The position numbers and the translations under genes are program-made. Positions 21,197 through 37,275 of a stretch of DNA of 37,275 bases are shown here, piece after piece. Position 1 is the stretch's first letter; each line of letters starts with the position of its first letter. The stretch comes from Bdellovibrionota bacterium (GTDB lineage: Bacteria > Bdellovibrionota_C > UBA2361). The stretch is taken from NCBI GenBank assembly GCA_044352465.1, contig JBILDU010000017.1, positions 1 to 37,275 on the forward strand, written 5' to 3'. A model generated the notes under the pieces. The model was not told the DNA's origin, did no database searches, and saw only the letters and a list, made by a program, of their open reading frames with translations.

Positions 21197-21264
21197 CCTC
21201 TTCTAGTCAAAGTTCCGGTTATTTCGGCGGGTTGAGTCCGCCGGTACCTTTCCGTTTCGGATGT

Positions 21265-22071
21265 ATGAAAAAGCAGTGGAACGATAACGGTGCGCGGCTG
21301 GTGAGCCGCGCGGGGCGCGATGGCGATACGATCGTCCGAGTACGAGCGGTGTCGTTTGGTGGCGATAGCTTCACTGTCATCGGGGGGCCGTGTGCGGTTG
21401 AGTCGGCCGATCAGATTAATCGATGTGCCGAGCTCAACGCTTCGTTGGGCGTTCATATGTTGCGGGGCGGTTGTTTCAAGCCCCGTACCTCGCCGTACAC
21501 TTTTGCGGGGCTCGGTGCCGAGGGAGTTCGGCTCCTCGCTGAAGCGGGGGGGCGGTTCGGCCTGCCCGTGGTGACCGAAGTCGGGTCGCAGGAGGAGATC
21601 GATCTGGTGCTTGAGGCTACCGATATGTTGCAGATCGGTTCGCGCAACATGTCGAATTTTAATCTACTCAAACTCGTCGGTCGAACCCGCAAGCCGGTCT
21701 TGTTAAAGCGTGGTATGAGCGCGACGGTCGATGAGTTTCTGTTGGCCGCTGAACATATCATGGCGGCGGGAAACGAGAATGTGGTGCTCTGCGAGCGCGG
21801 CATCCGTACGTTTGAGACCTCGACACGCGCCACACTCGATATCAGTGCGGTCCCGGTATTACGTGAGCGAACCCACCTGCCGATCATCGTGGACCCCTCG
21901 CATGCCGCCGGGATTCGCTCCCTTGTCGCGCCCCTCTCCCGAGCGGCGAAGGCCGTGGGCGCTCACGGAATCATCGTTGAGTACCACCCCGATCCTGATC
22001 AAGCACTGAGCGATGGTCCTCAATCGCTCAGCTTCCCACAGTTTGAGGCGCTCGCGCGGGAGCTCCTTTGA
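21265..22071 (+). CDS. aroF: DAHP synthase type I-beta, catalytic barrel only
   Basis: IGGPCAVES, LRGGCFKPRTSPYTF, QIGSRNMSNF, LLKRGMSAT, LCERGIRTFE, IVDPSH, ALSDG. ATG 21265 preferred. Confidence 0.94.
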   Translation: MKKQWNDNGARLVSRAGRDGDTIVRVRAVSFGGDSFTVIGGPCAVESADQINRCAELNASLGVHMLRGGCFKPRTSPYTFAGLGAEGVRLLAEAGGRFGLPVVTEVGSQEEIDLVLEATDMLQIGSRNMSNFNLLKLVGRTRKPVLLKRGMSATVDEFLLAAEHIMAAGNENVVLCERGIRTFETSTRATLDISAVPVLRERTHLPIIVDPSHAAGIRSLVAPLSRAAKAVGAHGIIVEYHPDPDQALSDGPQSLSFPQFEALARELL

Positions 22072-23177
22072 TGTCGTCTGATCGCATCTACAAGGTTCCC
22101 GTTATCAGCAACAGTAATGGGTATCGCTCCTCCTACACGGTTACCATCGGTGCCGGGCTCCTTGGACGGCTGAGCGAACTCATCATGTTCGAAAAGTTTT
22201 CGAGCGTTGGTCTTATCGTCGATGAGACGGTGAAGGATCTGTGGCTCGAACCGGTCATCGATTCGGTCTGTCGGCCGGTTACCGTTTTTGCAATACCACA
22301 AGGAGAGGATCAGAAATCGATTGAGATGACTCAACTACTGTGGCGTGAGTTCAGCGCCACGAAGCTCGACCGAGCGTCGATCATCTTGTGCCTCGGGGGC
22401 GGGGTTGTGACCGATCTCGGGGGGTTCGCTGCCGCAACGTTCATGCGGGGGATCGCCTGTGTCCACCTCCCGACGACGCTCCTTGGGCAGGTCGACGCCT
22501 CCGTCGGTGGAAAAGTCGGAATAAACTTCGATGGTCAGAAGAATCTCATCGGCGCTTTTGCCACGCCGCATGGAGTCATCGCCGATACAACGGTATTGGA
22601 GACACTGCCTGAGGTCGAGCGACGGAGTGGCTTGGCTGAGATGATTAAGCACGCGCTCGCGTTTGACCGCGACTACGCCGATGATCTGACCGACCTCGAC
22701 CCGCGTCTGCCCTTGCCTGCCGAGACGGCGCGGCTGGTTGCCCGTTCGGTGGAGTTGAAAGCCGCGATCGTTGAGCGGGATGAGCGCGAGGTCGGAATTC
22801 GGCGACTCTTAAATCTTGGCCACACGGTGGGTCATGCGCTTGAATCGTTGAGTCATGAAACGGAGAAACCGCTGCGTCATGGCGAGGCGGTGGCAATCGG
22901 CCTCGTCGCCGAGGCCCGGATCGCGGAGCTCGTGGGGCTACTGTCAGCGCGGGACCGGGCGCAGGTAAAGACCTTGATCGGTCGATTCGAACTGCCGGTT
23001 CGGCTCGATTGGGCGGTGTCCTCGGAAAAGGTCATCGACCGCATACTGCAAGACAAGAAGGTCTACGGTGGTGTTGTGCGGTGGCCGCTTCTCAGCGCCA
23101 TCGGTTCAGCGAAGCTCGATGTCGATGTGCCGCTCGATATCGTGCGCCAAGGTGTCGCCTATGTGGCCGGCTCTTAA
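22071..23177 (+). CDS. aroB: 3-dehydroquinate synthase
   Basis: GGGVVTDLGGF, PTTLLGQVDASVGGK, GLAEMIKH, LNLGHTVGHALE, HGEAV, DKK. Confidence 0.95.
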   Translation: MSSDRIYKVPVISNSNGYRSSYTVTIGAGLLGRLSELIMFEKFSSVGLIVDETVKDLWLEPVIDSVCRPVTVFAIPQGEDQKSIEMTQLLWREFSATKLDRASIILCLGGGVVTDLGGFAAATFMRGIACVHLPTTLLGQVDASVGGKVGINFDGQKNLIGAFATPHGVIADTTVLETLPEVERRSGLAEMIKHALAFDRDYADDLTDLDPRLPLPAETARLVARSVELKAAIVERDEREVGIRRLLNLGHTVGHALESLSHETEKPLRHGEAVAIGLVAEARIAELVGLLSARDRAQVKTLIGRFELPVRLDWAVSSEKVIDRILQDKKVYGGVVRWPLLSAIGSAKLDVDVPLDIVRQGVAYVAGS

Positions 23178-24975
23178 GGTCATTCCGACCGCTCACCCCC
23201 TGAAAGGTGTCGTGGAGGTTCCCGGCTCAAAGAGTTCGGGGGCCCGTCTTCTCATCGCCGCTGCGCTCGCGGAGGGAGAGTCGCTCATTCGTGGCCTCCC
23301 CCGTAACGACGATATCGAGGTGCTCATCGCTGCTCTGGTGAATCTCGGGATCGGTGTCGCGAGCGACCGCGACTGCGTGAAGGTGACGGGCCAGGGGGGA
23401 CGTTTCCGCGCTCCCGGAGGAACGATCGATATTCACCGTTCCGGAACCGCGCTACGGTTCCTTTTACCCCTCATCGCCATGGGCAGCGGTGCCCCGACAG
23501 TCCTGGACGGCGATTCCCGGCTGCGGGAACGTCCAGTCAAGCCCTTGGTCGAAGCGCTCTGCTCCCTCGGTTGTCTTATCGAAACTGAGGGCGCGGCGGC
23601 CCCGGTTGCGATTTCACCTGCGGGTATACCGGCGGGTGGTGCGGTCAGTCTCGATGCTACGGTGAGTAGCCAGTTTATCTCTGCGCTCCTTTTGGTGGGG
23701 CCACTTTTTCCGAACGGTCTTACCCTCAACCTCGTGGGTGCCCCTGTGTCGCGACCGTATCTCGAGCTTACGATCGAGCAGATGCGGCGGTGCGGGGTCG
23801 CGGTCGATAAGGTGAACGGCGAGGCGGGACTTTCTCTGCGGGTCTCCCCGCAAAAATATCGTGCGGCGGAATATGTTGTGCCCCCCGATGCCTCGACGGC
23901 GAGTTATTTTTGGGCCATCGGCGGAATCACCAACGGGGAGATCACCGTGCGGGGTCTCGATGTGGGGTCGCGTGAGCCTGACATGCAGGTGGCGATGGCG
24001 TTAGCGCAGATGGGGTGTGGGCTCGCCGGGGGGCGGGGGATCACCGTTGGGGGGCGGGGAAAGCTTCGCGCGATAACGGTTGACGGCGCACCTTTTCCCG
24101 ACGGGGCCATCACGGTCGCAGGCGTCGCCGCATTTGCAGATGGGGAGACTCGAATCGGGGGGCTCCGGACGTTGCGCTTCAAAGAGTCGGACCGGCTCAG
24201 CGCGGTTGTCGAGTTGCTCACGACTCTCGGGGTGGGGACGCGTGTTGAGGATGACGCGCTGTTTATTCGTGGTGGTGTCCCCCACGGCGGGCGTATCAAA
24301 ACCCACAACGATCACCGCTTGGCGATGATCGGCGGGGTCTTTGGGGCGCGGGTCGCGGGGGTTGAGATCGAAGCTCCCCATGTTGTTCGAAAATCGTGTC
24401 CCGAGTATTGGCGCTTGCTCGCCTCGTTAGGGGTTCGAACGGTCTGGGTGACGCCCCCCCTCGTCGCGCTTGTCGGTTTCATGGGTGCGGGGAAGACGAC
24501 CGTTGGGACGCTTTTAGGGCGTGAGCTTGGGATTCCCGTACTGGAGCTGGATGAGATGATTCGGGAAAAAGCCCACGCCGATTCGATCGCTGCGCTCTTC
24601 GAACAGGAGGGCGAGGCGGGGTTCCGTGAACGCGAACACGTGGCGCTGCAAGAGGCTTTGAGCGTCCTTCGGGCAACGGGAGGGGTGATCTCGACCGGCG
24701 GTGGCGTCGTCGAGCGTTCAGATAACACGGCGCTCCTCAGCGCTCACGCAACGGTGGTTCATTTAAATGCCCAATTCGGTACGATCGCAGCTCGGCTGGG
24801 CAACGATGAGGCGCGTCCCCTGTGGCGGAATCGTGATGCGGCGCGCGCTCTTTTCGAATCTCGAGCTTCGCGCTACCGTGCGGTGGCGGACCTCACCGTC
24901 GACACCGACGCTCTTTCGGCGAGCGATGTGGCTCGCGTCGTGGGTGAGCTTTGGTGTGAAGGAGTAGGACTGTGA
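23161..24975 (+). CDS. aroA: Bifunctional EPSP synthase / shikimate kinase (AroA-AroK fusion)
   Basis: AroA motifs PGSKS, SGTALRF, RERP, SSQFISALL, SRPY, RFKESDR, DHRLAM and KSCP continue without a stop into shikimate kinase motifs LVGFMGAGKTTVG, GEAGFRERE, ISTGGG and RPL. ATG 23161 preferred. Confidence 0.92.
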   Translation: MWPALKVIPTAHPLKGVVEVPGSKSSGARLLIAAALAEGESLIRGLPRNDDIEVLIAALVNLGIGVASDRDCVKVTGQGGRFRAPGGTIDIHRSGTALRFLLPLIAMGSGAPTVLDGDSRLRERPVKPLVEALCSLGCLIETEGAAAPVAISPAGIPAGGAVSLDATVSSQFISALLLVGPLFPNGLTLNLVGAPVSRPYLELTIEQMRRCGVAVDKVNGEAGLSLRVSPQKYRAAEYVVPPDASTASYFWAIGGITNGEITVRGLDVGSREPDMQVAMALAQMGCGLAGGRGITVGGRGKLRAITVDGAPFPDGAITVAGVAAFADGETRIGGLRTLRFKESDRLSAVVELLTTLGVGTRVEDDALFIRGGVPHGGRIKTHNDHRLAMIGGVFGARVAGVEIEAPHVVRKSCPEYWRLLASLGVRTVWVTPPLVALVGFMGAGKTTVGTLLGRELGIPVLELDEMIREKAHADSIAALFEQEGEAGFREREHVALQEALSVLRATGGVISTGGGVVERSDNTALLSAHATVVHLNAQFGTIAARLGNDEARPLWRNRDAARALFESRASRYRAVADLTVDTDALSASDVARVVGELWCEGVGL

Positions 24976-25790
24976 TCACCGGTAATACAAAGGTGTGCGT
25001 TATCTTCGGCGACCCGGTCGCCCATACCCTCTCCCCGGCTTTTCACGCCGCCGGTTATCGGGCGCTGGGGATTGAGCATGACTATACATTTGTCGCCGCC
25101 CGGGTGACCGCTACCGACCTGCCGAAAGCGATTTCGGGAGCGCGAGCGATGAATCTCCACGCGATCACCTGCACGATGCCGCACAAGGAGGCGGTGGTGC
25201 GGCTCCTCGACGGGGTCGATGAAGCTGCTCAAAGCATCGGTGCGGTGAATTCGATTGTGAATCGGGCGGGGCGTTTTCTCGGGTATAATACTGACTGGTT
25301 GGGAATTCGAAATTCGCTGGAGCGTCGCCGCGCTCTCCGCGGAGCCAAGGTCGTCGTTCTGGGAGCAGGTGGGACGGCACGAGCGGCCGTGTTCGGACTC
25401 ACGAATGCGGGGGCAGAGGTCACGATTTTGAATCGCTCCGTGGATCGGGCTGAGGCACTCGCGCTTGAGTTCGGGTGCGCGGGGGGCGACCTCAGTGCCG
25501 CTGAACCGCTGCAGCGAGCGGATATCGTTGTCCAAACGACCTCGGTCGGATTAAGCGATGAGTTGGCGAATCCCATCCCGGGGGCTCCTTTTCGCGCCGA
25601 TCAGTTGGTGCTTGATGTGATCTATCGCCCCCAGATGACCTCGTTTCTTCGCGCGGCGCAGTCGGTGGGGGCCACGATAATTACTGGGGAGGAGGTCTTC
25701 ATCGAGCAGGGGATCGCCCAGTTCGAGCTTTTTACCGGACTGACTCCACCCCGGGGGCCTCTTGAAGCTGTTTTGCGGAGCGCGCAGTGA
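24972..25790 (+). CDS. aroE: Shikimate dehydrogenase
   Basis: GDPVAHTLSP, TMPHKE, GAVNSI, GYNTD, LGAGGTARA, NRS, EQGIAQFELFTG. Confidence 0.95.
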   Translation: MITGNTKVCVIFGDPVAHTLSPAFHAAGYRALGIEHDYTFVAARVTATDLPKAISGARAMNLHAITCTMPHKEAVVRLLDGVDEAAQSIGAVNSIVNRAGRFLGYNTDWLGIRNSLERRRALRGAKVVVLGAGGTARAAVFGLTNAGAEVTILNRSVDRAEALALEFGCAGGDLSAAEPLQRADIVVQTTSVGLSDELANPIPGAPFRADQLVLDVIYRPQMTSFLRAAQSVGATIITGEEVFIEQGIAQFELFTGLTPPRGPLEAVLRSAQ

Positions 25791-26503
25791 TCGGGGTCGA
25801 TTCTCACCCGTTCTGCATCCCGTTGATCGTGGACTCCCTCGGAGAGATCGAGGCAACCTTAGAGAAACACGGCCACGAGACCCGCTACCTGGAGGTTTGG
25901 CTCGAGTACGTGCGGGACCGTACCCCGGAGAAAGTCGTGCAGCTTGCGCGCGCCAACCCCGGGCGATTTGTCTTCCATTTTCGGCGGTGTGAGCTGGCCC
26001 CGATCGAGACCTCCCTACAGGACCGGCTCGCCTTTTGGGAGGCGCTGCTTCCTCTCGATGTTTTTATCGACCTCGATGTGAATTCCCAACGAAGTGAGAT
26101 CGACTTCGTGCGCACCCACGGTCGCCGGGCCACCGGTATCGCCTCGTATCATAACTACGCCGCAACGCCGTCGCTTCCCGAGCTCCGCGCCATTGCGCGG
26201 CGTCTCCACCTCGAGTGGCCCGATGCGGTCGTCAAACTCGCGACGTTTTGTACGTCGCCCGATGAGAGCGAGAGCCTCATTCGACTTGAGCGCGAGCTTA
26301 CAGAGGAGACGATTTCTCACATCGTTGTTGGGATGGGTGAGTACGGCCGTGTGACTCGGATCGCGGGGGCGCGCGGCGGGAATCTCATGAATTTCACCCC
26401 GCTCACCTTAGAGGCTCGCTCAGCCGCCGGACAGATACCTCTTGGTGCCTTTCGGGAGGAGCTCGAGCGGGCCGAAACCGCGGCCAAGACCCCAGAGAGT
26501 TAG
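25787..26503 (+). CDS. aroD: Type I 3-dehydroquinate dehydratase
   Basis: IASYHNYAATP, VVKLA (Schiff-base Lys), GMGEYGRVTRI, SAAGQI; operon context. Confidence 0.88.
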   Translation: MIGVDSHPFCIPLIVDSLGEIEATLEKHGHETRYLEVWLEYVRDRTPEKVVQLARANPGRFVFHFRRCELAPIETSLQDRLAFWEALLPLDVFIDLDVNSQRSEIDFVRTHGRRATGIASYHNYAATPSLPELRAIARRLHLEWPDAVVKLATFCTSPDESESLIRLERELTEETISHIVVGMGEYGRVTRIAGARGGNLMNFTPLTLEARSAAGQIPLGAFREELERAETAAKTPES

Positions 26504-26556
26504 AGGGATAAAGAACCTATTGGACGGGGTGCGCCCCGCCGCGCTACCGTTGCGAC

Positions 26557-28044
26557 ATGAGTATCGATCGATTTTATTCGCTTGAAATTTTGGGTGCCCA
26601 TGTAGGGGGGGAGGTTGTGCCTGCTTCCGCGCGGGGCATTTCGGTGAGCGCCGTGACTGCCTCGAGTGAAACCCCGCCGCCGCGAGCGCTCTTCGCCGCA
26701 CTCAAAGGTGTCCGGGCCGACGGCCATGCCTTCGTTCAGCGGGCGATCTCGAACGGTTGTGTCGGGGCTCTGGTGAGCGATCCCGCCACTCTCGGCGATG
26801 CCCCCGGGTTGGTAGTAAAGGATACCCGCACAGCGTACGGAAAGATCGCTGCGTTCCTCGCTGGTTCCCCGTCAGAGCAGATGCGGGTTATCGGAATCAC
26901 CGGGACCAACGGCAAGACCACGACTCATTGGCTCCTGTATCATGCGCTTAATTATTTGGGTACCCCATGTATCCGAATAGGTACCCTCGGAGTCGCCGCG
27001 GAGCGTGTGCTGAACCTCCCCGGTGGGCTGACGACTCCCGACCCGGAGCTCGTTCACACTGTGCTCAAGCAAGCGCTTCAAGCAAAGTGCAACACCGCGG
27101 TGTTTGAGGTCTCGTCCCACGCCCTCGATCAAGCGCGGGTCGATGCGGTGTGTTTTGATGTGGGAGTTTTTACAAACCTGACGCGCGATCACCTTGACTA
27201 TCACGGCACGATGGAGGCGTATTTCGCGGCAAAAAAGAGGTTGTTTCATCTCGTGGCGGATTCGCCCAAGCGAACTCGGGGCGCGGTGATTAATCTCGAT
27301 GATCCGGTGGGGCCGGGGCTTCAGCGTGAAGTTCTCGCGCTCTCCCTGAACGATTTCTCTTTTGGCTTCTCGCCGGATGCGCCGCTGCGTATCCGGAGCT
27401 TCTCGCAAACAATCGCGGGTAGCGAGGTGACCCTTGAGTGGCAGGGCAAGGTGGCGACGATTCGCTCCCGGTTTGTGGGGCGCCATAACGCCTCGAATCT
27501 GGCGGCTGCATGTGGGGCACTGCTCGCCCTGCATGCACCGCTTGATGTGGCTGCGCGCGCCCTTGAATCGGTGCCGGAGGTTCCGGGGCGCCTTGAGCGG
27601 GTGCCCGCGAGGGAGCTCGGAATATTTGTCGATTACGCTCATACCCCCGATGCGCTTGAGAAAGCGCTCCAAACCCTGCGCGAGGTTACCACGGGGAAGC
27701 TCTGGGTGGTTTTCGGGTGTGGTGGGGATCGTGACAAAGGGAAGCGCCCGCAAATGGGGCTTGTTGCCCAAAAGCTCGCCGACCGAGTGGTCGTTACCTC
27801 CGATAATCCTCGTTCCGAGGTGCCGGGGGTGATCATCGACGATATCCTTGCTTCTGGAATTACCCCTTTTCTCGTTGAGACCGATCGGCGCCGCGCTATC
27901 GTCGGGGCTGTTACCGGCGCCGCACCGGGGGACCTCATCCTCATCGCCGGGAAGGGGCATGAGGATTACCAGATCGTCGGTACCGAAAAACTTCATTTCT
28001 CCGATGTTGAAGAGGCCTTGAATGCGTTAAAGTTGCGGTATTAG
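26557..28044 (+). CDS. murE: UDP-MurNAc-tripeptide (meso-DAP) ligase
   Basis: GITGTNGKTT, EVSSHAL, NLTRDHLDYH, VDYAHTPDAL, FGCGGDRDKGKR, TSDNPR, AGKGHE. Confidence 0.96.
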   Translation: MSIDRFYSLEILGAHVGGEVVPASARGISVSAVTASSETPPPRALFAALKGVRADGHAFVQRAISNGCVGALVSDPATLGDAPGLVVKDTRTAYGKIAAFLAGSPSEQMRVIGITGTNGKTTTHWLLYHALNYLGTPCIRIGTLGVAAERVLNLPGGLTTPDPELVHTVLKQALQAKCNTAVFEVSSHALDQARVDAVCFDVGVFTNLTRDHLDYHGTMEAYFAAKKRLFHLVADSPKRTRGAVINLDDPVGPGLQREVLALSLNDFSFGFSPDAPLRIRSFSQTIAGSEVTLEWQGKVATIRSRFVGRHNASNLAAACGALLALHAPLDVAARALESVPEVPGRLERVPARELGIFVDYAHTPDALEKALQTLREVTTGKLWVVFGCGGDRDKGKRPQMGLVAQKLADRVVVTSDNPRSEVPGVIIDDILASGITPFLVETDRRRAIVGAVTGAAPGDLILIAGKGHEDYQIVGTEKLHFSDVEEALNALKLRY

Positions 28045-28170
28045 GAGTGGCGATATTCTGTGATTGAGGTCGACTTTTTGCTGGGTTGCTGCGGCTCCGC
28101 GGGGTTACTTGGTGTGAGTCAGCAGAGAGCCGAAGCGCCCCTTTGAAATCAACTCTAGTTTTCGTCTGCT

Positions 28171-29595
28171 ATGCCGCTGTCCCTCACCAAAGAAAAGCTC
28201 GCCGAGGTCGTTAGCGGAGCGCTCCTCTCGACAGCTGAGAAGATGTCTTTTCATGGGGTCGTCTACGACTCTCGGGAGGTGGCTGGGGGGGAGCTTTTTG
28301 TGGCGCTTCCCGGTGCTCAAGCGCATGGACATACGTTCCTCGACCAGGCTTTTGGTCGGGGAGCTTCTTTGGCGCTCGTCGAAGACCGTCAGCTACTCGC
28401 CGACTCTCCGCACAAAGAACGGCTCGTCTGCGTGCCCGATTCGTTGAAAGCTTTTTGGGCGCTCGCCAAGTGGTGGCGCGAAGAGCTGGCTATCCCGGTC
28501 CTCGGAGTAACCGGTTCAGTTGGAAAGACTACCGTCAAAGAGATCGCGGCCGCGATTCTACTCCGGTACAAGCGGGGGATCTACTCGCTCAAGTCACATA
28601 ATAACCATGTGGGGGTTCCCTACACGATCTGTCGAGCCGATCGGACCCACGAGTGGGCGGTGCTTGAGATGGGGATGAACCATGCGGGGGAGCTCCGCGC
28701 TCTGACGGCCATAGCCCAGCCGAACGTGGCTCTCATCAACATCATCGCTCCGGCCCATATCGAGCATTTTGGGTCGCTTGAGGGGATCGCTCGAGCGAAG
28801 TTGGAGATAGCCGAGGGGTTACGGCCGGGGGGGGCGCTGGTGCTTAACGGGGACGATGAGGTGCTCCTTCCTGTTGCCGGTGAGCTGGGGAGACGGGGTG
28901 GGTCGACCTACTACTTCGGCTCGAAAGGCTCCCCCGATATGCTGGTTTCTGGAGTCACCTCGAAGGGGCTCGAGGGGCTGGTCTTTTCCCTATCCGGGAG
29001 TGAGCGGGTCGGGGGAGGGGCGACGGAGGCCTCAATGTCGATCTTAGGGCGCCATAATGCCCTCAACGGAGCGGCCGCGGCGCTCGGTGTTAAGCTTCTC
29101 TTCCCGGAGTTGACCCTTGGTGATATCGCTAAGGGGCTCGCCCAGTTCCAAGCGCCCCTTATGCGGCTCTCCATCAAGCTTTTAACCCACGAGCGGAAAG
29201 TTATCGACGACTCCTATAACGCGAATCCCCAGTCGATGCGGGCAGCGCTCGATATCGGTCGGGACCTCGTTGATTCGGGGCTTCGGGTGGGGCTGGTTTT
29301 GGGAGATATGTTGGAGTTGGGGGAGCGTTCCTCCGAGTACCACGCCGAGATAGGTGTCTACGCCGCCCGGATTAACCCAGTATTCTGTGTCACGGTTGGA
29401 CCGTTGTCCCGGGCGCTCTTCGAGGCTGTGCACGGGGCCGGGATCCCCGCTTTTCAGGCTGAGTCGCCTGAGGCTGCAGCCCATATTGCGAGAAAGTTTG
29501 CATTTGATATTTTGATCGTGAAGGCATCCCGCGGAACCGGTCTCGATCGCACGGTCAAGACTCTTGTCGAGCGCGATGGTGTCCTCGGAGAGTAG
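28171..29595 (+). CDS. murF: UDP-MurNAc-tripeptide--D-Ala-D-Ala ligase
   Basis: VTGSVGKTTVKE, NNHVGVP, LEMGMNHAGE, IDDSYNANP, LGDMLELG, VKASRG. Confidence 0.96.
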   Translation: MPLSLTKEKLAEVVSGALLSTAEKMSFHGVVYDSREVAGGELFVALPGAQAHGHTFLDQAFGRGASLALVEDRQLLADSPHKERLVCVPDSLKAFWALAKWWREELAIPVLGVTGSVGKTTVKEIAAAILLRYKRGIYSLKSHNNHVGVPYTICRADRTHEWAVLEMGMNHAGELRALTAIAQPNVALINIIAPAHIEHFGSLEGIARAKLEIAEGLRPGGALVLNGDDEVLLPVAGELGRRGGSTYYFGSKGSPDMLVSGVTSKGLEGLVFSLSGSERVGGGATEASMSILGRHNALNGAAAALGVKLLFPELTLGDIAKGLAQFQAPLMRLSIKLLTHERKVIDDSYNANPQSMRAALDIGRDLVDSGLRVGLVLGDMLELGERSSEYHAEIGVYAARINPVFCVTVGPLSRALFEAVHGAGIPAFQAESPEAAAHIARKFAFDILIVKASRGTGLDRTVKTLVERDGVLGE

Positions 29596-29665
29596 GAGTT
29601 TACGCCCTCCGCAGAGATGCTCGTGATAGCCGTCTAGCGCTCCCCGCGTTTTTCCAGGTGCGTTT

Positions 29666-30742
29666 GTGCTTTATCATCTTTTGTTCCCTCTTCACGAGCA
29701 CTACGGGTGGCTCAACGTGTTTCGTTACCAGACCTTTCGGGGAATGCTCGCGTTCCTGATCGCATTTGTTTTTGTCCTCGTTTTTCAGCCTATCTTTATC
29801 CGCTGGCTGCAAAATCGCGGGGTAAAAGGACAGCCGATCCGGGATGATGGTCCTAAAGATCATGAGGTTAAAAAGGGAACTCCCACGATGGGGGGGCTGG
29901 TCGTCATCGCCGGGATCGTGTGCGCTTCGGTGCTGTTGGTTGATCTGACAAATCCCTTTGTGTGGCTCACCCTCGGAATTCTCATCGCCTATGCGGTCGT
30001 TGGATTCGTCGATGATTGGCGCAAGATTACCCAGCAAAATACCAAGGGCCTCTCCAAACGGGAGAAGTTTTTCGCTCAGGTAGGGATCGCTGCCGTGGCG
30101 GGGGCGATCCTTACCTTTATGGGGTTTTCGACGGCCCTTACCGTACCGTTCTTGAAAGATCTCGGATTTAACCTCGGCATATTTTTCATCCCTTTCGTCG
30201 TCCTTGTCGTCGTGGGGAGCTCGAATGCAGTGAACCTGACCGACGGTCTCGATGGGCTCGCTATCGGGCCGGTCATGACAGTCTCGATTACCTACGCGAT
30301 CTTTGCCTATCTCACCGGACATGCCGGGCTCGCTGACTATCTGGGGCTTATCCACATCGCCGGGATGGGGGAGGTGGCTATTATCCTCGCCGCCATCTTT
30401 GCCGCTGGACTGGGATTTCTTTGGTACAACACCTTTCCCGCCCAAGTTTTTATGGGAGATATCGGGGCGTTGGCGTTGGGCGGCGTCTTAGGATTTATCG
30501 CGATACTCACCAAGCATGAGCTCATCCTCGTTGTGGCTGGGGGGATATTTGTCCTCGAGGCTGTTTCGGTTATTCTCCAGGTGTATTCGTTTCGGATGAC
30601 CGGTCGGCGGATATTTAAGATGGCTCCGATTCACCACCACTTTGAATTAAAGGGGTGGGCTGAGCCAAAAATCATCGTTCGATTTTGGATCATCTCGATC
30701 GTGCTCGCGCTTCTGTCGCTCACGACTCTGAAGCTGCGTTAA
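29666..30742 (+). CDS. mraY: Phospho-MurNAc-pentapeptide transferase
   Basis: KKGTPTMGG, GFVDD, NAVNLTDGLDGLA, FMGDIG, MAPIHHHFE. Confidence 0.97.
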   Translation: MLYHLLFPLHEHYGWLNVFRYQTFRGMLAFLIAFVFVLVFQPIFIRWLQNRGVKGQPIRDDGPKDHEVKKGTPTMGGLVVIAGIVCASVLLVDLTNPFVWLTLGILIAYAVVGFVDDWRKITQQNTKGLSKREKFFAQVGIAAVAGAILTFMGFSTALTVPFLKDLGFNLGIFFIPFVVLVVVGSSNAVNLTDGLDGLAIGPVMTVSITYAIFAYLTGHAGLADYLGLIHIAGMGEVAIILAAIFAAGLGFLWYNTFPAQVFMGDIGALALGGVLGFIAILTKHELILVVAGGIFVLEAVSVILQVYSFRMTGRRIFKMAPIHHHFELKGWAEPKIIVRFWIISIVLALLSLTTLKLR

Positions 30743-30761
30743 CCGTGAGGGGATTTTCGCC

Positions 30762-32270
30762 GTGAGTAGTGCCATCGATATGCGGTCGAGGTTGACCGCG
30801 CTCGTTTCTAAAAAGCAAAAAGTCGTTGTTGTAGGCCTCGGCATCACGGGGGTCGACACGGCGAGTTTTCTCTTGTCGTTGGGTGTAACGGTGGTCTGTG
30901 TCGAGCGCACCACCGAGGCGGTGTACAAATCGAAATCGAAATACTTCGATCGGGTTGAGGATCTGCGCCGTCGGGGTGCGCGGGTCGTTTTTGGATGCGA
31001 CGGCGAGGATGCGGCACCCCATCTCGTTGAGGTTGAGCTCGCTGTCCTCAGTCCTGGTGTGTCGCTCGAGTCCGCGATCGCGGGGGCACTCAAGGCGAGG
31101 GGGATCGCGATGGTGAGTGAGTTCGAGCTCGGCATCGAGTTGTCGCGTCAACCCGCGATTGTTGTTACCGGCAGTAACGGAAAAAGCACGACGGTAAGCC
31201 TTATCGAGGCGATGTTTAAAGCGGCCGGTTTGGCTGCGCGCCTTTGTGGCAATATCGGTACCCCCGTTATCGCCGGGGTCTCGAAGGAGGTAGTGCTCCG
31301 TGATATCTCCCCCCCGAAAGAGGTTCTCATCGTTGAGGCGTCGAGTTATCAGCTCGAGGCATGCTCCGTCATAAAGCCGAAGGTGGCGGTTCTGCTGAAC
31401 CTCTCGGATAACCATCTGGAGCGGCACGGCACCTTGGAGCGTTATCTCGGTGCAAAAGCACGGGTCTTCGCCCAACAGGATAGCACTGACTATGCGGTGC
31501 TCAATGCTGACGATCCCCACGCGCGTTCTCTCATCGCGAAGATGAAGGGGCGCGTGGTTCTTTTTGGTGCCGATGAAGCGCGATTGAAAGGGCATGATCA
31601 CGCTCGAATCGCTTTTGATCCAGCGAAGAGCTCCGATACTTTAAAGGTTGCGCTGCTGGGGGTGGTCTATGAATTCGACCTCTCTCAAACCGGGCTCCTC
31701 GGGCTGCATAATCGCTACGACATCGCTGCGGCGACGCTCGGAGCGCTCCTCCTGGGAGTCCCGGTAGAGGGGATTCAAAGGGCTATTCACGAATTCACCC
31801 CCTTGGAGCATCGCCTTGAAAGGGTTGAGGGTGTTTCTCGTGCGATCGTTGTGAACGACTCGAAGTCGACGACCGTTGCCGCGGCGGTGGCGGCGATCGA
31901 ATCGATGCGCGAAGTCTATCCCGAGCGAAAGCTCACGGTGATGCTTGGGGGGCTCGCCAAGGCGGGCTCATGGGAGCCTGTCATCACGACGTTGAGGCGT
32001 CATGAAGCGTTTTTAAAGCCCGTTATCTGCTTTGGGCAGGATGCGAACATAATTTCAAGCCACTGTCGGGCTGGTGCGATCCCGTGCCACAGCGCGAAGA
32101 CTCTCGCGGCGGGGGTTGCCCTGGCGCTTGAACAGTCCACACCTGACGACGTGGTGCTTTTGACCCCCGGGTGCGCAAGTTTCGATGAGTTCAGGGACTT
32201 TGAGGAGCGCGGGGAGCGATTTAAAGCGGTTGTCCAAACGTTCGCGTCGGACCGCTCCAGGGCTATTTGA
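30762..32270 (+). CDS. murD: UDP-MurNAc-L-Ala--D-Glu ligase
   Basis: GLGITG, SPGV, VTGSNGKSTT, GNIG, EASSYQL, HLERH, NDSK, PGCASFDEF. Confidence 0.95.
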   Translation: MSSAIDMRSRLTALVSKKQKVVVVGLGITGVDTASFLLSLGVTVVCVERTTEAVYKSKSKYFDRVEDLRRRGARVVFGCDGEDAAPHLVEVELAVLSPGVSLESAIAGALKARGIAMVSEFELGIELSRQPAIVVTGSNGKSTTVSLIEAMFKAAGLAARLCGNIGTPVIAGVSKEVVLRDISPPKEVLIVEASSYQLEACSVIKPKVAVLLNLSDNHLERHGTLERYLGAKARVFAQQDSTDYAVLNADDPHARSLIAKMKGRVVLFGADEARLKGHDHARIAFDPAKSSDTLKVALLGVVYEFDLSQTGLLGLHNRYDIAAATLGALLLGVPVEGIQRAIHEFTPLEHRLERVEGVSRAIVVNDSKSTTVAAAVAAIESMREVYPERKLTVMLGGLAKAGSWEPVITTLRRHEAFLKPVICFGQDANIISSHCRAGAIPCHSAKTLAAGVALALEQSTPDDVVLLTPGCASFDEFRDFEERGERFKAVVQTFASDRSRAI

Positions 32271-32327
32271 TTAGCCTGCCGGGGAGTCCTACACTACGAG
32301 CAGTCGTGTGGTGGGGAGAGCCTGTTG

Positions 32328-32765
32328 ATGGATCCTGAATTTAATCCGGGGAGAGGGCCGAAGCCTGAAGACCTTCAAAGGCTTTTGGCTGAGGATTTTG
32401 GGCTTGAAGGGCGCCGTTTTCTCGAGCAAAACGAGAGCCCCGAGACCGTCCGAGCGCTGAGCCAGCTCCTGACTGAGGAGCTCCACGCCCGTTTCGTATC
32501 GACTGACAGGGTAAAGGGACTCCATCCGGCGATCTCTGAGGAGGTGGCGCAGGCTGAAGCCTATAGCCTGAGCAGGCAGCTCCTGTGGCAGAAGGTCGGC
32601 GGGATGCTGGACCAGAGTCGGCCGATTTCGCTGTCCGATATGGACCAGGTCTTTCGGGGGACCGCGATGGCTACCCGGGAGGCGTTGGTGACGATTTGTC
32701 TAGGGCTTGACCTCGGGGTGAGCACAGTTCTTGAAGAGGCCCGTGTTCGCGGGTGGCGGGGGTAG
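32328..32765 (+). CDS. Hypothetical protein with a possible C-terminal Xre/Cro-type HTH
   Basis: 145-aa ORF with a GGGGAG RBS filling the murD-ftsW gap. The C-terminus LSRQLLWQKVG...ISLSDMDQVFRG...TREALVTICLGLDLGVSTVL follows the HTH_XRE hydrophobic pattern by eye. Confidence 0.6.
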   Translation: MDPEFNPGRGPKPEDLQRLLAEDFGLEGRRFLEQNESPETVRALSQLLTEELHARFVSTDRVKGLHPAISEEVAQAEAYSLSRQLLWQKVGGMLDQSRPISLSDMDQVFRGTAMATREALVTICLGLDLGVSTVLEEARVRGWRG

Positions 32766-32893
32766 ATCCCTTGGGGCACTCGGCGCTCCTCCCAAGGTCG
32801 AAACCGCCACCGCATGTGGCTAAAACCTCCCTGCCGTGTTCGTCATTTTCATGATTTAATCTCACGGTAACGTGCTTTCGCCTGAGGTGCGCC

Positions 32894-34048
32894 TTGAGTT
32901 TTACCGCTACCCTTCGAGTGCCTGAATCCCGCCGGGAGCTCAGAGCTCCGTTCATCGTTGATATGCCCATGGTCTTAACCACGGTGGGGCTCGTGCTCTT
33001 CAGCGTCATCATGGTCTACTCGACCACCGGGGTGCTCGCCCAGGAGAAGTTTGGCGACTCGCTGTTCTTTTTTAAGCGTCAAGCGGTGGCCGCGGGTATC
33101 GGGTTCGTTCTGATGCTCCTCTGTTCCCGGCTCGACATATCGATTCTGAAAAGGTTGTCACCGTACCTCTTCTTTGTTTGCGTTGGGCTTCTCATCCTCA
33201 CCATGATCCCGGGAATCGGTGACCGTGCCGGGGGCGCGCAGCGATGGGTGCAACTACCGTTCATGCGTTTTCAGCCGGTTGAGTTTATCAAGATAATGTT
33301 CGTTATCTTCATCGCTGGTTACTACTCGCGCCACGAAGGGGAGGTGGGCAATTTTCTCCAGGGCATCGTAAAACCTTTTTTCCTTTTCGGGTTTCTGGCG
33401 GTTCCGCTACTCCTCCAGCCTGACTTTGGCAGCACCGCGGTGATCGCGCTCGTTACCTTTGGAATGGCGGTGGCGCTGGGAGTGAAGCTGCGCTGGATTC
33501 TTATCGGTCTCGTGGGTGCGGCGATAATAGCGGGGGCACTCGTCTATTTGTCGCCGTATCGAATGATGCGAATCCTTAGTTTCCTCTCCCCAATGGCAGA
33601 TGCTTCAGGAAAAGGTTATCAACTCATCCAGTCCCTTATCGCGGTCGGTAGCGGTGAGATTACTGGTGTTGGGCTCGGCGGAAGTCAGCAGAAGCTCTTT
33701 TTCCTGCCCGCGGCGCATACTGATTTTATCTTCGCAGTGATCGCTGAGGAACTCGGATTTGTTGGTTGTCTCGCGGTTATCGCGGCCTTTCTGGTCTTCC
33801 TGTGGCGCGGTCTTGTGCTGGCAGGTAAACTCGCTGACGATACGTTCGAGTGCGCCCTGGCGGTAGGGCTTACCCTTCTTGTGGTAGTGCCGGCGTTCCT
33901 AAATATGGGGGTGGTGCTCGGTATCCTCCCCACGAAGGGAATGGTGCTGCCGCTCGTAGGGTATGGTGGGTCGAGTCTTATCGCCTCGCTCGTCGGTGTA
34001 GGGCTGCTCCTCGCATTGGCTCGTTCATTTCAAAGAAATGTCCGTTAA
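32894..34048 (+). CDS. ftsW: SEDS peptidoglycan polymerase FtsW
   Basis: GAQRW, FQPVEFIK, QPDFG, GYQLIQSLIA, QKLFFLPAAHTDFIFAVIAEE, PTKG, YGGSS; GAGG before the TTG start. Confidence 0.96.
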   Translation: MSFTATLRVPESRRELRAPFIVDMPMVLTTVGLVLFSVIMVYSTTGVLAQEKFGDSLFFFKRQAVAAGIGFVLMLLCSRLDISILKRLSPYLFFVCVGLLILTMIPGIGDRAGGAQRWVQLPFMRFQPVEFIKIMFVIFIAGYYSRHEGEVGNFLQGIVKPFFLFGFLAVPLLLQPDFGSTAVIALVTFGMAVALGVKLRWILIGLVGAAIIAGALVYLSPYRMMRILSFLSPMADASGKGYQLIQSLIAVGSGEITGVGLGGSQQKLFFLPAAHTDFIFAVIAEELGFVGCLAVIAAFLVFLWRGLVLAGKLADDTFECALAVGLTLLVVVPAFLNMGVVLGILPTKGMVLPLVGYGGSSLIASLVGVGLLLALARSFQRNVR

Positions 34049-35159
34049 CGAAACCTCAAAAGGCGGGGCTACAAAGTCACCCCGAATCCTTATCGCTGCG
34101 AGCGGTAGTGGTGGACACCTTTTTCCGGCGCTTCATATCGCTCGGGCGATCAAATCGGCGGCGCCCGACGCGCGGATCGAATTCGTTGGTTCGGGGCGGC
34201 CCCTGGAGGAAAAACTCATCGTTCAAAATGGATTCGTACGTCACGTCGTAAAGATTTCCGGAATTAAACAGCGGGGATTCCGCGGTTTAATCGATTTCTT
34301 CGCGGCGGTACCCCGGGCGTTTTCGCAACTGCGGGATATCTGTGCGGAGCTCAGTCCGACAGTCGTCGTGGGTGTCGGCGGCTATGTCAGTGTGCTCCCC
34401 GTGGTCTTTGCCAAGATTCGAGGGATACCAACCTGGATTCATGAGGCCGAATTGAAGCCGGGACTGGCGAATGCCTTTCTCGGTCTTTTCTCCGACCGGA
34501 TCTCGGTGGCGTTTCAAGAAGCGAAGATCCTTCGTCGGCGTGCCGTTGTGTATACCGGGCACCCCATTCGTGGGGGGCTTGGGGAGGTTCGTCGCGAGGC
34601 TCCCCGTGATCGGTTGACACGGCTCCTTATCCTCGGGGGGTCCCAAGGAGCCCAGGGAATCGATAACGCGGTGGGCGCCCTTGCCCCGTTCCTACGCGAT
34701 CGGGCGATCGAAGTTTGGCATCAATGTCGGCCCGAAAACGTAGCGCCCGTAGTAGCCGCATATCGTTCCCACGGCGTTGCCGCCCGGGTCGACAGCTTTA
34801 TCGATGACATGAGTGGGGCACTGCAGTGGTGCGACGTTATCATTAGTCGCTCTGGGGCGAGCGCGGTTATGGAGCTCAGCGTCGTGAATATTCCCACCAT
34901 CTTCGTCCCGTATCCTTTTGCCCAAGGTAACCACCAACTTGCGAATGCGCAGGTGCTCGCTGCCGCTGGAAAAGCTCTAGTCGTCGAGGAGGGGGAGGGG
35001 TTTCCGACTCGCCTCGAGGCCGCGTTGCGCCACCTTCTTGCCCCCGAAAACTATCGCCGGATGCTCGACACCCCCTATGAAGCCCGCTCGCTCGAAGCCG
35101 CCGATCGAATCGCTTCCGGCATCCTCGCTATCTCCAATCCCCCACCTCCAGGTCTCTGA
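34038..35159 (+). CDS. murG: Lipid I GlcNAc transferase MurG
   Basis: SGSGGHLFPAL, GVGGYVS, IHE..KPGLAN, GHPIR, LGGSQGA, SRSGAS, HQLANA. Confidence 0.95.
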   Translation: MSVNETSKGGATKSPRILIAASGSGGHLFPALHIARAIKSAAPDARIEFVGSGRPLEEKLIVQNGFVRHVVKISGIKQRGFRGLIDFFAAVPRAFSQLRDICAELSPTVVVGVGGYVSVLPVVFAKIRGIPTWIHEAELKPGLANAFLGLFSDRISVAFQEAKILRRRAVVYTGHPIRGGLGEVRREAPRDRLTRLLILGGSQGAQGIDNAVGALAPFLRDRAIEVWHQCRPENVAPVVAAYRSHGVAARVDSFIDDMSGALQWCDVIISRSGASAVMELSVVNIPTIFVPYPFAQGNHQLANAQVLAAAGKALVVEEGEGFPTRLEAALRHLLAPENYRRMLDTPYEARSLEAADRIASGILAISNPPPPGL

Positions 35160-35170: not shown

Positions 35171-35506
35171 CCGGCGGGGCTGATGGCGCGGTGTATCAAT
35201 CCGAAAATATTGATAAAAACTTAGTGGGCGTGTTTTTCTCCGCGCAAGATTCGCTAGAAAAGTCCGGTGGGCCGATCAGAACGCTCGTTTTGTAGGGTAA
35301 AAAGTAGTTTAGCTGTGGTGGGGTGGGTAAAATTGAGGCTGGTCGGCGTAATTCAGATGTGAGCGCACCAGGTTTTCTAGTCTGTTTTAGTCCCTCGTTC
35401 TCGTTCGGTTTTTACCGCACATCCCCTTTATTTCTGACCATAACGCCAGGTGGGGTGGAGGAATCAAAAAACCTCAGCCCGTGTAGGAATTTTTGGTTGG
35501 TTTTCT

Positions 35507-37275
35507 ATGTCCTCATCGCGTCTTGATACGCCAGTCGTGGCCACGCCTACCGGCGGTGAGCCGGCGACCGCGCCCGTGCAAAGCCAATCAACCGACCTCT
35601 CCACCCTTGGTATCAGCCGAGATTCGCTCAGCGCCGAGACAAAAACAGCTACTCCGAAAAATGCAGACTTCGATCCCTCCCTCAAGGTGACCGGCACCGA
35701 TCTCGATGTCGAGCGTGCTGAGAACGCCAAGGCCGTCCTCGGACTCGATCTCGATAAAGTTGCGTCTGATTACAAAGCTGCGAACGAGGCGCTTGCGGCT
35801 CGTCACGAGGAGCTCCAGAACGCTGGTTTCGAGGATGCGGCGGCTCCAGCCGGAATTCCAAATCTGCTCCGCTCGGCGGGGGCCGGGGGCAGCTCGGTTC
35901 GCGCTCTGCAGCAACAAGAGCTCGCTCAAAGCGAAGCGATGCTCCTCGCGGGAAAATCGAAAAAGAAGACCGGAAACCGCGAGGTCGATGATTTTATCGA
36001 ACTCCATCCGGAGCTCCTCCCCCTTGTGGCAAAGATTCAAGAGGAGCTCGCCGCAATCGAGCGGGCGCGCTCTGGTGGGAGTAATGGTCTTGAATCGAAG
36101 TCGAATCTCGAAGCTGCCCTTGATCGAGTTGCCACTCTCCTCGAGGGACAGCCGCTTGCCCCAGAGCTGCGGATGGGGAACCGGACCGCGCGAAATGCTC
36201 TCCTGGCTCTGGTAGGTGAATCGCTTCGGGATTCCTGTGAGGCTGCGCTCGATCGGTTCGCTCAATCCGCAGTAAGATCAGCTGAGGCGCGGCGGCTCGA
36301 CGTTACGGAGCGCCGTTCCGAAAACGTGGCAGAGCGTGCCCGAGAGCTAGAAGAGATCGAAAAACAGGCTCAAAGAATCGGACGTGAAAGGGGAGCTATC
36401 CTCGCGGCTCCTCGCCCGCCCGCGGCCGAGGCTCTTCAGGAGCTCGAGCTGCAGCGGCGGGAGCTCGAGCGAAGAATTCAGGCTCTCTTGGGCGGGGCCG
36501 AACCGGGCCAAGCCCATCTAGCCGCGGTGCTGAAACAGAGCGAGGACGCGGCTCGGGCACAGGTTGTATCAGAACATATCTACGAGCTTGCAAGAGATGT
36601 CCGACTCCTCGAGGGACGACGGGGTCAAAGCGTTGCTCACCGCGCCGCGCTCGAGCGACTCGCCGAATATCGGGAGAGCCAAGGTGATCTGATCCAGCGA
36701 AATGCCGCGGTGCGTGACGCATTGACCCGACATGAGGAGAGAGCCGTCCTGGATGCGGTACGGCTTTTAAGAAACGCGGACGCTGCAGCGCTGAATCTCT
36801 ATACCGCTGCGTGGGGATGGGGCACCGATGAGAAGTTGCTTCTCGCGACACTCAAGGGCCGGAGCGAATTCGAGCTCAAACTCCTGAAAGAAGTCTATCG
36901 TGAGCAGTACCAGCAGTCCATGGACGAGATGCTGGCAGCAGAGATTAATCGAACCGGCACTATCGAGAAGCAGATCTGGGCTGCAGCAAACGGAGACCCG
37001 AATCACCGTGGCGGCGAAGTTGTTGCGTTGTCAGCTACCGAGCTTTCCGCCGCGGCGCCTGAACGCTCGTCCGAGACGATCCGCGCAGCTTTGGTGTCAT
37101 CTGACCAAGCCCAGCTTCTCGCAGTCGAGCTGCACGAGCGGATCGCTGTATCCGCCGATCCAGCCCTTGAGCTCGCACAGATACGGGAGCGCGCCGGAAC
37201 TGCGGGGCTGTCTTTACAGGAGATCGAACAGGCCGGTGTTGCCCTCGGTTTCCAAGAGGTACTTCCGGCGATCGA
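35507..37275 (+). CDS. Large helical protein containing an annexin repeat (3' end beyond the window)
   Basis: Manual translation from ATG 35507 is open to the window end, about 589 codons. It has an S/T/P-rich N-terminus, a coiled-coil-like middle, and DAAALNLYTAAWGWGTDEKLLLATLKGRSEFELKLLKEVYREQYQQSMDEMLAAEI at 36779-36946. Not in the ORF track. Confidence 0.88.
   Translation, partial: MSSSRLDTPVVATPTGGEPATAPVQSQSTDLSTLGISRDSLSAETKTATPKNADFDPSLKVTGTDLDVERAENAKAVLGLDLDKVASDYKAANEALAARHEELQNAGFEDAAAPAGIPNLLRSAGAGGSSVRALQQQELAQSEAMLLAGKSKKKTGNREVDDFIELHPELLPLVAKIQEELAAIERARSGGSNGLESKSNLEAALDRVATLLEGQPLAPELRMGNRTARNALLALVGESLRDSCEAALDRFAQSAVRSAEARRLDVTERRSENVAERARELEEIEKQAQRIGRERGAILAAPRPPAAEALQELELQRRELERRIQALLGGAEPGQAHLAAVLKQSEDAARAQVVSEHIYELARDVRLLEGRRGQSVAHRAALERLAEYRESQGDLIQRNAAVRDALTRHEERAVLDAVRLLRNADAAALNLYTAAWGWGTDEKLLLATLKGRSEFELKLLKEVYREQYQQSMDEMLAAEINRTGTIEKQIWAAANGDPNHRGGEVVALSATELSAAAPERSSETIRAALVSSDQAQLLAVELHERIAVSADPALELAQIRERAGTAGLSLQEIEQAGVALGFQEVLPAI

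Follow-up and report, generated by a model that had tools for sequence, protein, structure and literature searches.

Annexin repeats ahead of a predicted membrane hairpin in a giant protein from a Bdellovibrionota bacterium

Eukaryotic annexins are soluble proteins of ~320 residues (A6 of ~670 residues) that form a compact disc of four repeats and bind membranes reversibly. Chlamydial Inc proteins lack a Sec signal and carry a bilobed hydrophobic stretch of ~40–60 residues, which keeps the two protein ends on the same membrane side, with exposed parts that are rich in coiled coils. In bacteria, annexins have been described from 34 proteins in 17 species, among them fusions with toxin, protease, and lipase domains and proteins with transmembrane segments (available sections of Kodavali et al. 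2014, PMC3894181). One example, the annexin of Burkholderiales bacterium JOSHI_001, is portrayed there as cytosolic and membrane-anchored, with its annexin domains located beside the anchor. Single annexin domains also occur in polymorphic toxins delivered by Photorhabdus virulence cassettes (PVCs) (excerpts of Zhang et al. 2012, PMC3482391). Sequences of bacterial annexins have been on record since 2006–2014, and none of these proteins is characterized biochemically or has a known function according to the relevant passages of PMC10569963 and PMC3894181. The system described here comes from a Bdellovibrionota bacterium (assembly GCA_044352465.1, contig JBILDU010000017.1). The window, that is, the whole analyzed stretch of 37,275 nucleotides, ends within an annexin gene, of which it appears to contain the first 589 of ~3,400 codons (35507–37273, plus strand). 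An original prediction made from the letters of the window alone had proposed a eukaryote-type annexin repeat in a large, membrane-targeting secreted effector or toxin.

Residues 419–499 of the encoded protein (36761–37003, plus strand) form a unit of five helices and are a genuine annexin repeat, beyond a chance motif. Matches to annexins were obtained with a hidden Markov model, a sequence search of the PDB, and structure superposition. The Pfam model Annexin (PF00191) recognizes residues 427–480 with 33.2 bits (E 5.7e-8, curated gathering cutoff 25), and a six-frame search of the genome with the same model gives 37.1 bits (E 1e-8) at 36785–36946, with none of 14 control genomes above the cutoff. 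With phmmer, the last 196 residues retrieve annexin VI (1m9i) from the PDB at E 2.4e-29. When 1.84 billion representatives were searched with all 589 residues, 279 proteins were found at E ≤ 1e-3, 35 at ≤ 1e-10, and six at ≤ 1e-30. The six best of these 279 are full-length relatives, and nearly all others match residues ~420–500 only, usually in three to seven stretches, as multi-repeat annexins. An AlphaFold2 model of the 589 residues was calculated from a family alignment of 10 rows (mean predicted local distance difference test score, pLDDT, of 72.3) and reaches a pLDDT of 75–94 over residues 411–500. Superposed by VIA-align, residues 419–499 follow single annexin repeats over 72–76 residues at 1.5–2.0 Å (Z 12–12.8, 20–28% identity), and the nuclear magnetic resonance structure of annexin I domain 1 (1bo9) is covered in 73 of 73 residues at 1.7 Å. 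The Foldseek search suggested by the original prediction was weak for the whole 589-residue model: its list consists almost entirely of annexins, but nothing lies at E ≤ 1e-3 (best 1mcx, 2e-2).

In the motif of the type II Ca2+ site, G437-W-G-T440 (36815–36826, plus strand) provides the AB-loop and Glu479 (36941–36943, plus strand) the acidic "cap." Exactly 38 residues (441–478) lie in between, and positions as well as spacing are those that had been read from the window originally. The motif GxGT-(38)-D/E is intact in this repeat, which makes it a predicted Ca2+ site. In the 10 aligned family rows (read by eye), the cap column is always E or D, and the loop column is an exact GxGT in five rows, GLGS in two near-identical rows of one organism, and degenerate in three. 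The Trp of GWGTD, typical of plant annexins, is present in nine bacterial annexin domains as well (Kodavali et al. 2014, PMC3894181, in the part available). The nearest relatives outside the family are bacterial annexins from metagenome-assembled genomes (MAGs) mixed with animal annexins, all at ~28–36% identity, and the repeat is not specifically "eukaryote-type."

A second, degenerate repeat had been suspected downstream. In the AlphaFold2 model, residues ~505–589 (37019–37273, plus strand) do build a second five-helix unit without GxGT (helices 510–516, 522–530, 534–548, 552–566, and 570–579; pLDDT 70–86). By sequence it was not detected, as residues ~505–589 gave no match with a local repeat profile that was built from the five annexin repeats of a paralog on contig C45. 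In VIA-align, 123–132 residues of 419–589 are placed on two consecutive annexin repeats, but at a poor root mean square deviation (rmsd) of 24 Å. Judged from the model, this unit is probably a degenerate annexin-like repeat that crosses the contig break.

The annexin open reading frame (ORF) extends from ATG 35507 to the last full codon at 37273 and is free of stops up to the end of the window; an alternative in-frame GTG start lies at 35450. As had been noticed, the frame is missing from the annotation track, and the peptide quoted for it is present. Because the window is an entire contig (C105; G000:C105:1-37275) of an assembly with 170 contigs (3.13 Mb, 94.9% complete), the gene is truncated by an assembly break. 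Its continuation is located on contig C67, the minus strand of which opens inside a frame of 2810 codons (11529–3100; protein P0003). No DNA overlap of at least 12 bases exists between the end of C105 and any other contig end, and the join is based on colinearity with orthologs. Two long homologs are available, P0001 (2215 residues, partial, an NCBI MAG protein) and P0002 (2666 residues). Residues 1–583 of C105 align to P0001 20–603, whereas C67 residues 26–481 and 496–996 align to P0001 627–1101 and 1198–1700. The alignment to P0002 agrees with this picture, multiple alignments of both pieces are colinear, and the pieces abut within ~10 residues by ortholog coordinates. On this colinearity, the C105 ORF and the C67 frame are one gene of ~3,400 codons that was cut by the assembly, and its absence from the annotation track is due to the split over two contigs. 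Both pieces were analyzed separately throughout.

Further annexin-like repeats are found in the C67 piece. The local profile scores C105 425–478 with 27.5 bits, C67 192–257 with 21.8 bits, and C67 539–594 with 10.4 bits. Three strong repeats, spaced by ~345 residues, are detected with it in each of the orthologs of genomes G032 (381/728/1073) and G016 (402/749/1085). An AlphaFold2 model of C67 residues 1–700 (pLDDT 83.6, predicted template modeling score 0.64) retrieves 96 structures with Foldseek at E ≤ 1e-3, of which the first 50 are without exception annexins or fusion constructs of annexins (1avc ranks best, 7.8e-8). In VIA-align (Z up to 12.6), residues 180–345 and 423–605 each fit two consecutive repeats at 6.3–7.6 Å, and residues 181–604 follow whole four-repeat annexin cores with ~200–300 residues aligned at a poor rmsd of 11–15 Å (Z ~11–12.6). 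Read from the helix pattern of the model, five consecutive annexin-like repeats with insertions are predicted (C67 ~192–257, 258–345, 346–422, 423–535, and 537–605). Ahead of this array, the protein has additional helical hairpins. The two recognizable C67 repeats have the loops LLGT and VAGT; within the giant protein, a full GxGT occurs only in the window repeat. P0001 and P0002 do not reach the Pfam Annexin cutoff.

The last annexin-like repeat ends at C67 594–605 and is followed by a helical linker of ~80 residues and then by a hydrophobic block (C67 683–732) of 40–50 residues that is bilobed in shape. One such block is present in every ortholog and in the paralog. It opens a Gly/Ala-rich module of ~260 residues, conserved over 263 alignment positions (seven rows), with motifs such as VRMGxK, QxSR, APxQA, and ExTWxEGxGxGL; on either side, its hydrophobic block is flanked by Arg/Lys. 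The first 40–50 residues of the module should be hydrophobic enough to form a two-helix membrane hairpin and are, thus, a predicted anchor. No entry of Pfam (PF14449 included), NCBIfam, or the PDB matched the module. Leads from a protein atlas, among them PT-TG and LXG clusters, were rejected as evidence since they stayed at 0.86–0.89, below the bar of 0.9, with 102–115 shared features. The module is followed by a tail of ~1,850 residues that is charged, helical, of low complexity, and partly Pro-rich. No known domain was found in it by Pfam, with tail pieces scanned to E ≤ 10, by NCBIfam, or by a PDB profile search, and P0003, P0001, and P0002 have no Pfam match to a toxin or a peptidase at E ≤ 1. 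By eye, short motifs of the tail (P0003 ~1000–2810; P0002) recur and are found in orthologs as well. For example, the unit "...GYLTEFD..." comes twice behind the module, the unit "G(V/L)KVPR.EVE.G...L...RAER" is likewise seen twice, and the extreme C terminus is acidic in common. The length of the tail is very variable among relatives, with whole frames of 1,950–4,440 codons.

The paralog on C45 is a protein of 1276 residues (G000:C45 53469–49642, minus strand; locus L020:243-4070:-). Its five canonical annexin repeats score 167.9 bits, its copy of the module scores 129 bits with the module profile, and two FHA domains (59.9 bits) come after the module. Its repeat loops are GWGTDE, GMGTDE, GLGTDE, one degenerate loop, and GLGTGN. 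C67 200–369 aligns to C45 74–227 with 31% identity (E 1e-9), and the giant gene and C45 have a common layout of five annexin repeats, a linker of ~85 residues, and the module. No Pfam, NCBIfam, or PDB entry matched the C-terminal region of C45. A Cys...His...Asp pattern can be seen there by eye, and the transglutaminase-like impression it gives was not confirmed.

Compared with the control genomes (none of 14), annexins are frequent in the order: Pfam Annexin scores above its cutoff in 22 of 91 genomes and at E ≤ 1e-3 in 28, often in frames of 1,400–4,400 codons. The module profile matches 20 of 124 genomes of the phylum, 18 of them in the order and two elsewhere in the class. Seventeen of the 24 module-bearing frames of the order have a Pfam annexin upstream in the same frame and two more have one by protein scan; among the other five, G001:C57 and G032:C29 show weak matches to the local profile. 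Fourteen distant frames have both features, and in each of them the annexin-like matches lie N-terminal of the module, at a distance of 71–135 residues in 10 frames and of 247–847 in four. Fifteen distant frames were scanned with Pfam, and Annexin is the sole family at E ≤ 1e-3 in 13 of them (10 above the cutoff). One frame has no family, and the L058 frame has Annexin together with PRTase-CE at 20.4 bits, below the cutoff of 27; no toxin or enzyme family reached its cutoff in these 15 frames. The relatives in G058 and G068 as well as C45 keep five high-scoring repeats (167.9–197.2 bits). The family defined by the N-terminal block is much narrower than that of the module, with eight of 41 relatives, and comprises eight loci in five MAGs among ~185,000 species, labeled Bdellovibrionota (two), Oligoflexia, Deltaproteobacteria, and Pseudomonadota. 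Two side observations belong here. In G041:C37 (L049:11981-18001:+), a frame of 2007 codons lies directly 3' of an annexin-module giant gene; it matches the module weakly (15.1 bits), lacks an annexin match, and may be a tandem paralog. P0019, a metagenome protein of 988 residues with the source name RelA/SpoT-type nucleotidyltransferase, bears an annexin repeat near its N terminus, where residues 43–114 align with the window repeat, and is a further uncommon annexin fusion of bacteria.

The guanine-cytosine (GC) content of the giant gene is 0.605–0.613 versus 0.573 genome-wide, and both GC and GC at third codon positions resemble those of neighboring genes. By this composition, the gene appears to be vertically inherited and chromosomal. 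A recent transfer from eukaryotes was considered and rejected, as the GC content matches the neighbors and the nearest annexins are of mixed origin.

The N-terminal part of the protein is disordered and rich in Ser/Thr/Pro (residues 1–62; 35507–35692, plus strand; pLDDT < 50) and has no hydrophobic segment. None of the 589 residues in the window belongs to a hydrophobic stretch (Kyte-Doolittle ≥ 1.4 over 19 residues); hence, the window ORF has no Sec signal. Both features had been anticipated in the original prediction, as had a large and mostly helical protein, and residues 63–436 are indeed predicted to be helical by AlphaFold2. According to the 10-sequence alignment, the most conserved block of the family is formed by residues ~95–236 (35789–36214, plus strand), with the invariant residues H167, P168, E169, L212, E213, G214, P216, A218, P219, L221, R222, and G224. 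It has no match in Pfam, NCBIfam, or a PDB profile search, and no usable protein-atlas match was obtained for residues 60–300. Long helical hairpins (residues 238–436; 36218–36814, plus strand) then lead into the annexin repeat in the AlphaFold2 model, with helices 238–300, 307–328, 332–369, 375–398, and 400–436 and a pLDDT of mostly 81–94 from residue 271. C105 residues 295–510 are repeated at C67 59–252 (blastp, 29.7% identity over 219 columns, E 2.5e-5), which is the sole internal repeat at E ≤ 1e-2 in self-BLAST searches of four family members.

Immediately upstream of the giant gene lies murG (34038–35159, plus strand), the last gene of the dcw cluster, a name that is our reading of its MurG-type GSGGHLFPAL motif. 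The dcw cluster (21232–35159, plus strand) ends at murG, and its usual continuation, murC and ftsQ/A/Z, is not in the window. murG is 68% identical to the copy in the same-genus genome G001, where the ortholog of the giant gene directly follows murF-mraY-murD-ftsW-murG in the same gene order as in C105. In G016, which belongs to a different family, the ortholog is located ~7.8 kb after murG. A gene resembling class II aminoacyl-tRNA synthetases 3' of the C67 gene was left unused as synteny evidence, since it shares no more than 27% identity with its counterpart behind the ortholog of G016. The gap of 347 bases between murG and the giant gene contains no promoter- or terminator-like consensus site. 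The 19 codons from GTG 35450 to ATG 35507 (35450–35506) encode ...VGIFGWFSM and are near-identical in the same-genus ortholog; P0001 begins at the codon equivalent to GTG 35450, and the stretch is recognizable in G032 as FGW..M. Whole-gene identity, unlike this stretch, is only 41% (same-genus ortholog) or 30% (G032). Either the true start is upstream of 35507 or 35450–35506 is a conserved leader element.

From the observed domain order, annexin identity, conserved module, and fixed arrangement, we infer a mechanism at the membrane. We favor, at somewhat less than an even chance, a scaffold or tether that its hairpin anchors in the bacterium's own inner membrane, on the cytoplasmic side, with the annexin repeats acting as clamps for Ca2+ and anionic lipids. 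The hairpin would fix the protein in the membrane and leave both long arms on one side. Because there is a single hairpin and the annexin array is only ~80 residues away, the repeats just before the hairpin would sit on the same membrane face as the arms. Intact GxGT...D/E sites, such as G437–T440/E479, could bridge Ca2+ to anionic phospholipid head groups, and the helical arms could serve as scaffold or tether. Such a protein would be no toxin but a Ca2+- and lipid-sensitive membrane scaffold, which possibly answers Ca2+ entry upon envelope damage or has a role in the envelope or in division. A cytoplasmic placement is suggested by the missing signal peptide, Arg/Lys on both flanks of the hairpin, and the FHA domains that follow the module in C45. 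It is further favored by the lack of toxin domains, by the absence of markers for type IV and type VI secretion systems (T4SS and T6SS; the genome has no match to VirB4 or to the T6SS sheath protein VipB), and by the published cytosolic, anchored bacterial annexin. In addition, when bovine annexin A4 is produced in E. coli, its action depends on its Ca2+ sites (PMC10569963, as far as its available text goes), so an annexin working inside a bacterium is plausible.

Several points weigh against this reading. The giant gene diverges fast, with 41% identity to the same-genus ortholog versus 68–95% for six adjacent dcw genes, and the module is patchy (~18 of 91 genomes of the order). Patchiness and fast divergence are typical of proteins that face other organisms. 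Since a full GxGT is restricted to the window repeat and the C67 loops read LLGT and VAGT, most repeats of the giant protein may not bind Ca2+. Resting free Ca2+ in the bacterial cytoplasm is sub-micromolar, which is low for annexin sites. A disordered N terminus, a bilobed hydrophobic hairpin, and coiled coils describe injected membrane effectors as well. The genome holds three FlhA/SctV-type and three FliP/SctR-type genes, and a nonflagellar type III-like exporter may exist in it. Finally, FHA domains also work in the eukaryotic cytosol and are, thus, no proof of a bacterial cytoplasmic location.

The alternative that fares best, possible though rather unlikely, is a delivered membrane effector of the Inc kind. 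It would be exported without Sec, by a type III-like route or during predation, and insert its hairpin into a prey or host membrane, where the repeats would bind Ca2+ and acidic lipids and the arms would recruit or tether targets. The disordered Ser/Thr/Pro-rich N terminus without a Sec signal, the bilobed block of 40–50 residues, the coiled-coil-rich arms, and the patchy, fast-diverging distribution all fit such a protein, and annexin domains are known as accessories of injected polymorphic toxins (PMC3482391, in the part available). The three FHIPEP and three FliP genes, with one FHIPEP gene that has a TPR gene and a small gene of the YscJ type as neighbors, would offer an export route. However, 90 of the 91 genomes in the order hold 2–5 FHIPEP matches each, as opposed to ~18 that possess the cassette, with no covariation. 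By sequence, additional export gates of a type III-like kind characterize the lineage, and being order-wide, their multiplicity is uninformative on secretion of the giant protein. Moreover, no chaperone or secretion gene adjoins the giant gene, T6SS and T4SS markers are absent from the genome, and at 3,400 residues the protein would be an extremely long type III substrate. For the "secreted effector or toxin" of the original prediction, no positive evidence was obtained: no toxin or enzyme domain reaches the Pfam cutoff in the protein, its orthologs, or the 15 distant relatives; the internal hairpin should anchor the protein in a membrane, and the paralog has FHA domains. As to the export genes themselves, the FHIPEP copy on C168 (G000:C168 ~50000–55700, L044:6929-12738) is grouped with genes for a sigma factor, for a TPR protein, and for a small protein of the YscJ/FliF type, and the copy on C47 (G000:C47 7400–9541) directly follows Tad-pilus genes (CpaB, a CpaF-type ATPase, TadB/C). 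Contigs G000:C117, C136, and C118 are also listed for the FHIPEP/FliP gene set.

A structural relic appears improbable. Here, the repeats would be helical building blocks of a membrane-anchored, coiled-coil, cytoskeleton-like protein, with Ca2+ and lipid binding lost or irrelevant. The loops are mostly degenerate in the giant protein and its closest orthologs, as in LLGT and VAGT of C67 and in P0001 and P0002 that miss Pfam Annexin; the C67 array superposes poorly on annexin cores (11–15 Å over ~200–300 residues), and the hairpin alone would be enough for membrane attachment. Against this, the window repeat retains the motif in full, all 10 aligned rows have an acidic cap and five of them an exact GxGT, and C45, G058, and G068 retain their five high-scoring repeats. 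The order of annexin before hairpin is kept across families as well, which suggests that the repeats matter at the membrane. A giant polymorphic toxin with an unrecognized C-terminal toxin domain, whose annexin repeats and hairpin would aid the crossing of a target membrane, is very improbable: annexin domains do occur in such toxins (PMC3482391 and PMC3894181, in the parts available), and weak atlas leads (0.86, below the 0.9 bar) run from the module to PT-TG or LXG clusters, but Pfam finds no toxin family in the protein, its orthologs, or the 15 distant relatives, the module matches neither PF14449 nor another Pfam model, the C-terminal region is charged, helical, and of low complexity, with no compact variable domain and an acidic end common to orthologs, and the published annexin toxins always have a bona fide enzymatic toxin domain after the annexin (PMC3482391, same part).

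More broadly, and with fairly low confidence, the array, the ~80-residue linker, and the ~260-residue hairpin module may constitute an undescribed, conserved membrane-attachment cassette that defines a family of giant proteins (1,300–4,400 residues) in this uncultured, Bdellovibrionota-like order, either as a Ca2+-gated tether or damage sensor or as an Inc-like effector class with its own annexin clamp. If true, the Ca2+-gated tether or damage sensor would be a bacterial counterpart of annexin-based membrane repair. The lineage is a good entry point to bacterial annexins, with repeats in 22 of 91 genomes of the order in two related architectures, just before the same hairpin module. This genome alone offers one repeat with a fully canonical Ca2+ site motif and a paralog with five repeats. 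A lipid clamp beside an integral anchor is, hence, a testable hypothesis for bacterial annexin repeats, and the data contribute to the debate on a bacterial ancestry of annexins. The literature covered, partly by excerpts, yielded no account of a cassette of annexin and hairpin or of annexins in the Bdellovibrionota; a comparable architecture might be listed in Supplementary Table S1 and Figure 2 of PMC3894181. The available portion of a bioRxiv preprint on giant genes does not mention annexin.

Compared with the bacterial annexins of PMC3894181, as far as its available sections describe them, the giant protein exhibits the same Pfam-level repeats, a GWGTD-type loop, a variable repeat number, extra nonannexin regions, and predicted transmembrane segments. 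Its lineage of Bdellovibrionota- and Oligoflexia-labeled MAGs is outside the 17 species of that study, in the text of which "Bdellovibrio" has no occurrence. With JOSHI_001, by description, it shares annexin repeats that adjoin a predicted anchor (block from 683, last repeat ending at 594–605) and the lack of a signal peptide. JOSHI_001, by contrast, carries Colicin D and Pyocin_S toxin domains, of which none was found in the giant protein; the anchor of the latter lies within the conserved ~260-residue module, and the protein is larger (~3,400 residues) with long helical arms. The PVC-delivered toxins are alike in having an annexin repeat in a large bacterial protein without a Sec signal, where it is an accessory membrane-interacting module, but therein an enzymatic toxin domain follows the annexin, whereas the giant protein has no detected toxin domain or metallopeptidase (PMC3482391, in the part available). 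The likeness to eukaryotic annexins (A1, A2, A4, A5, A6, and giardins) is structural: residues 419–499 fit single repeats at 1.5–2.0 Å with the GxGT-38-E motif, and C67 180–605 runs along four-repeat cores. The repeats differ from these in being embedded in a giant, predicted hairpin-anchored protein, as a predicted five-repeat array with insertions that as a whole deviates by 11–15 Å. With Inc proteins, the likeness is one of features, namely the missing Sec signal, the bilobed block of 40–50 residues, and the coiled-coil arms; no sequence relation was seen. Inc proteins are far smaller, have no annexin repeats, and reach the membrane of a host vacuole through a defined injectisome. Since bacterial annexins as a class, including one membrane-anchored example (2014), are already known, the giant protein is no new class. 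New are the lineage, the frequency in one order, the absence of recognizable toxin domains, the giant size, and the conserved combination of an annexin array and a hairpin module that had not been described.

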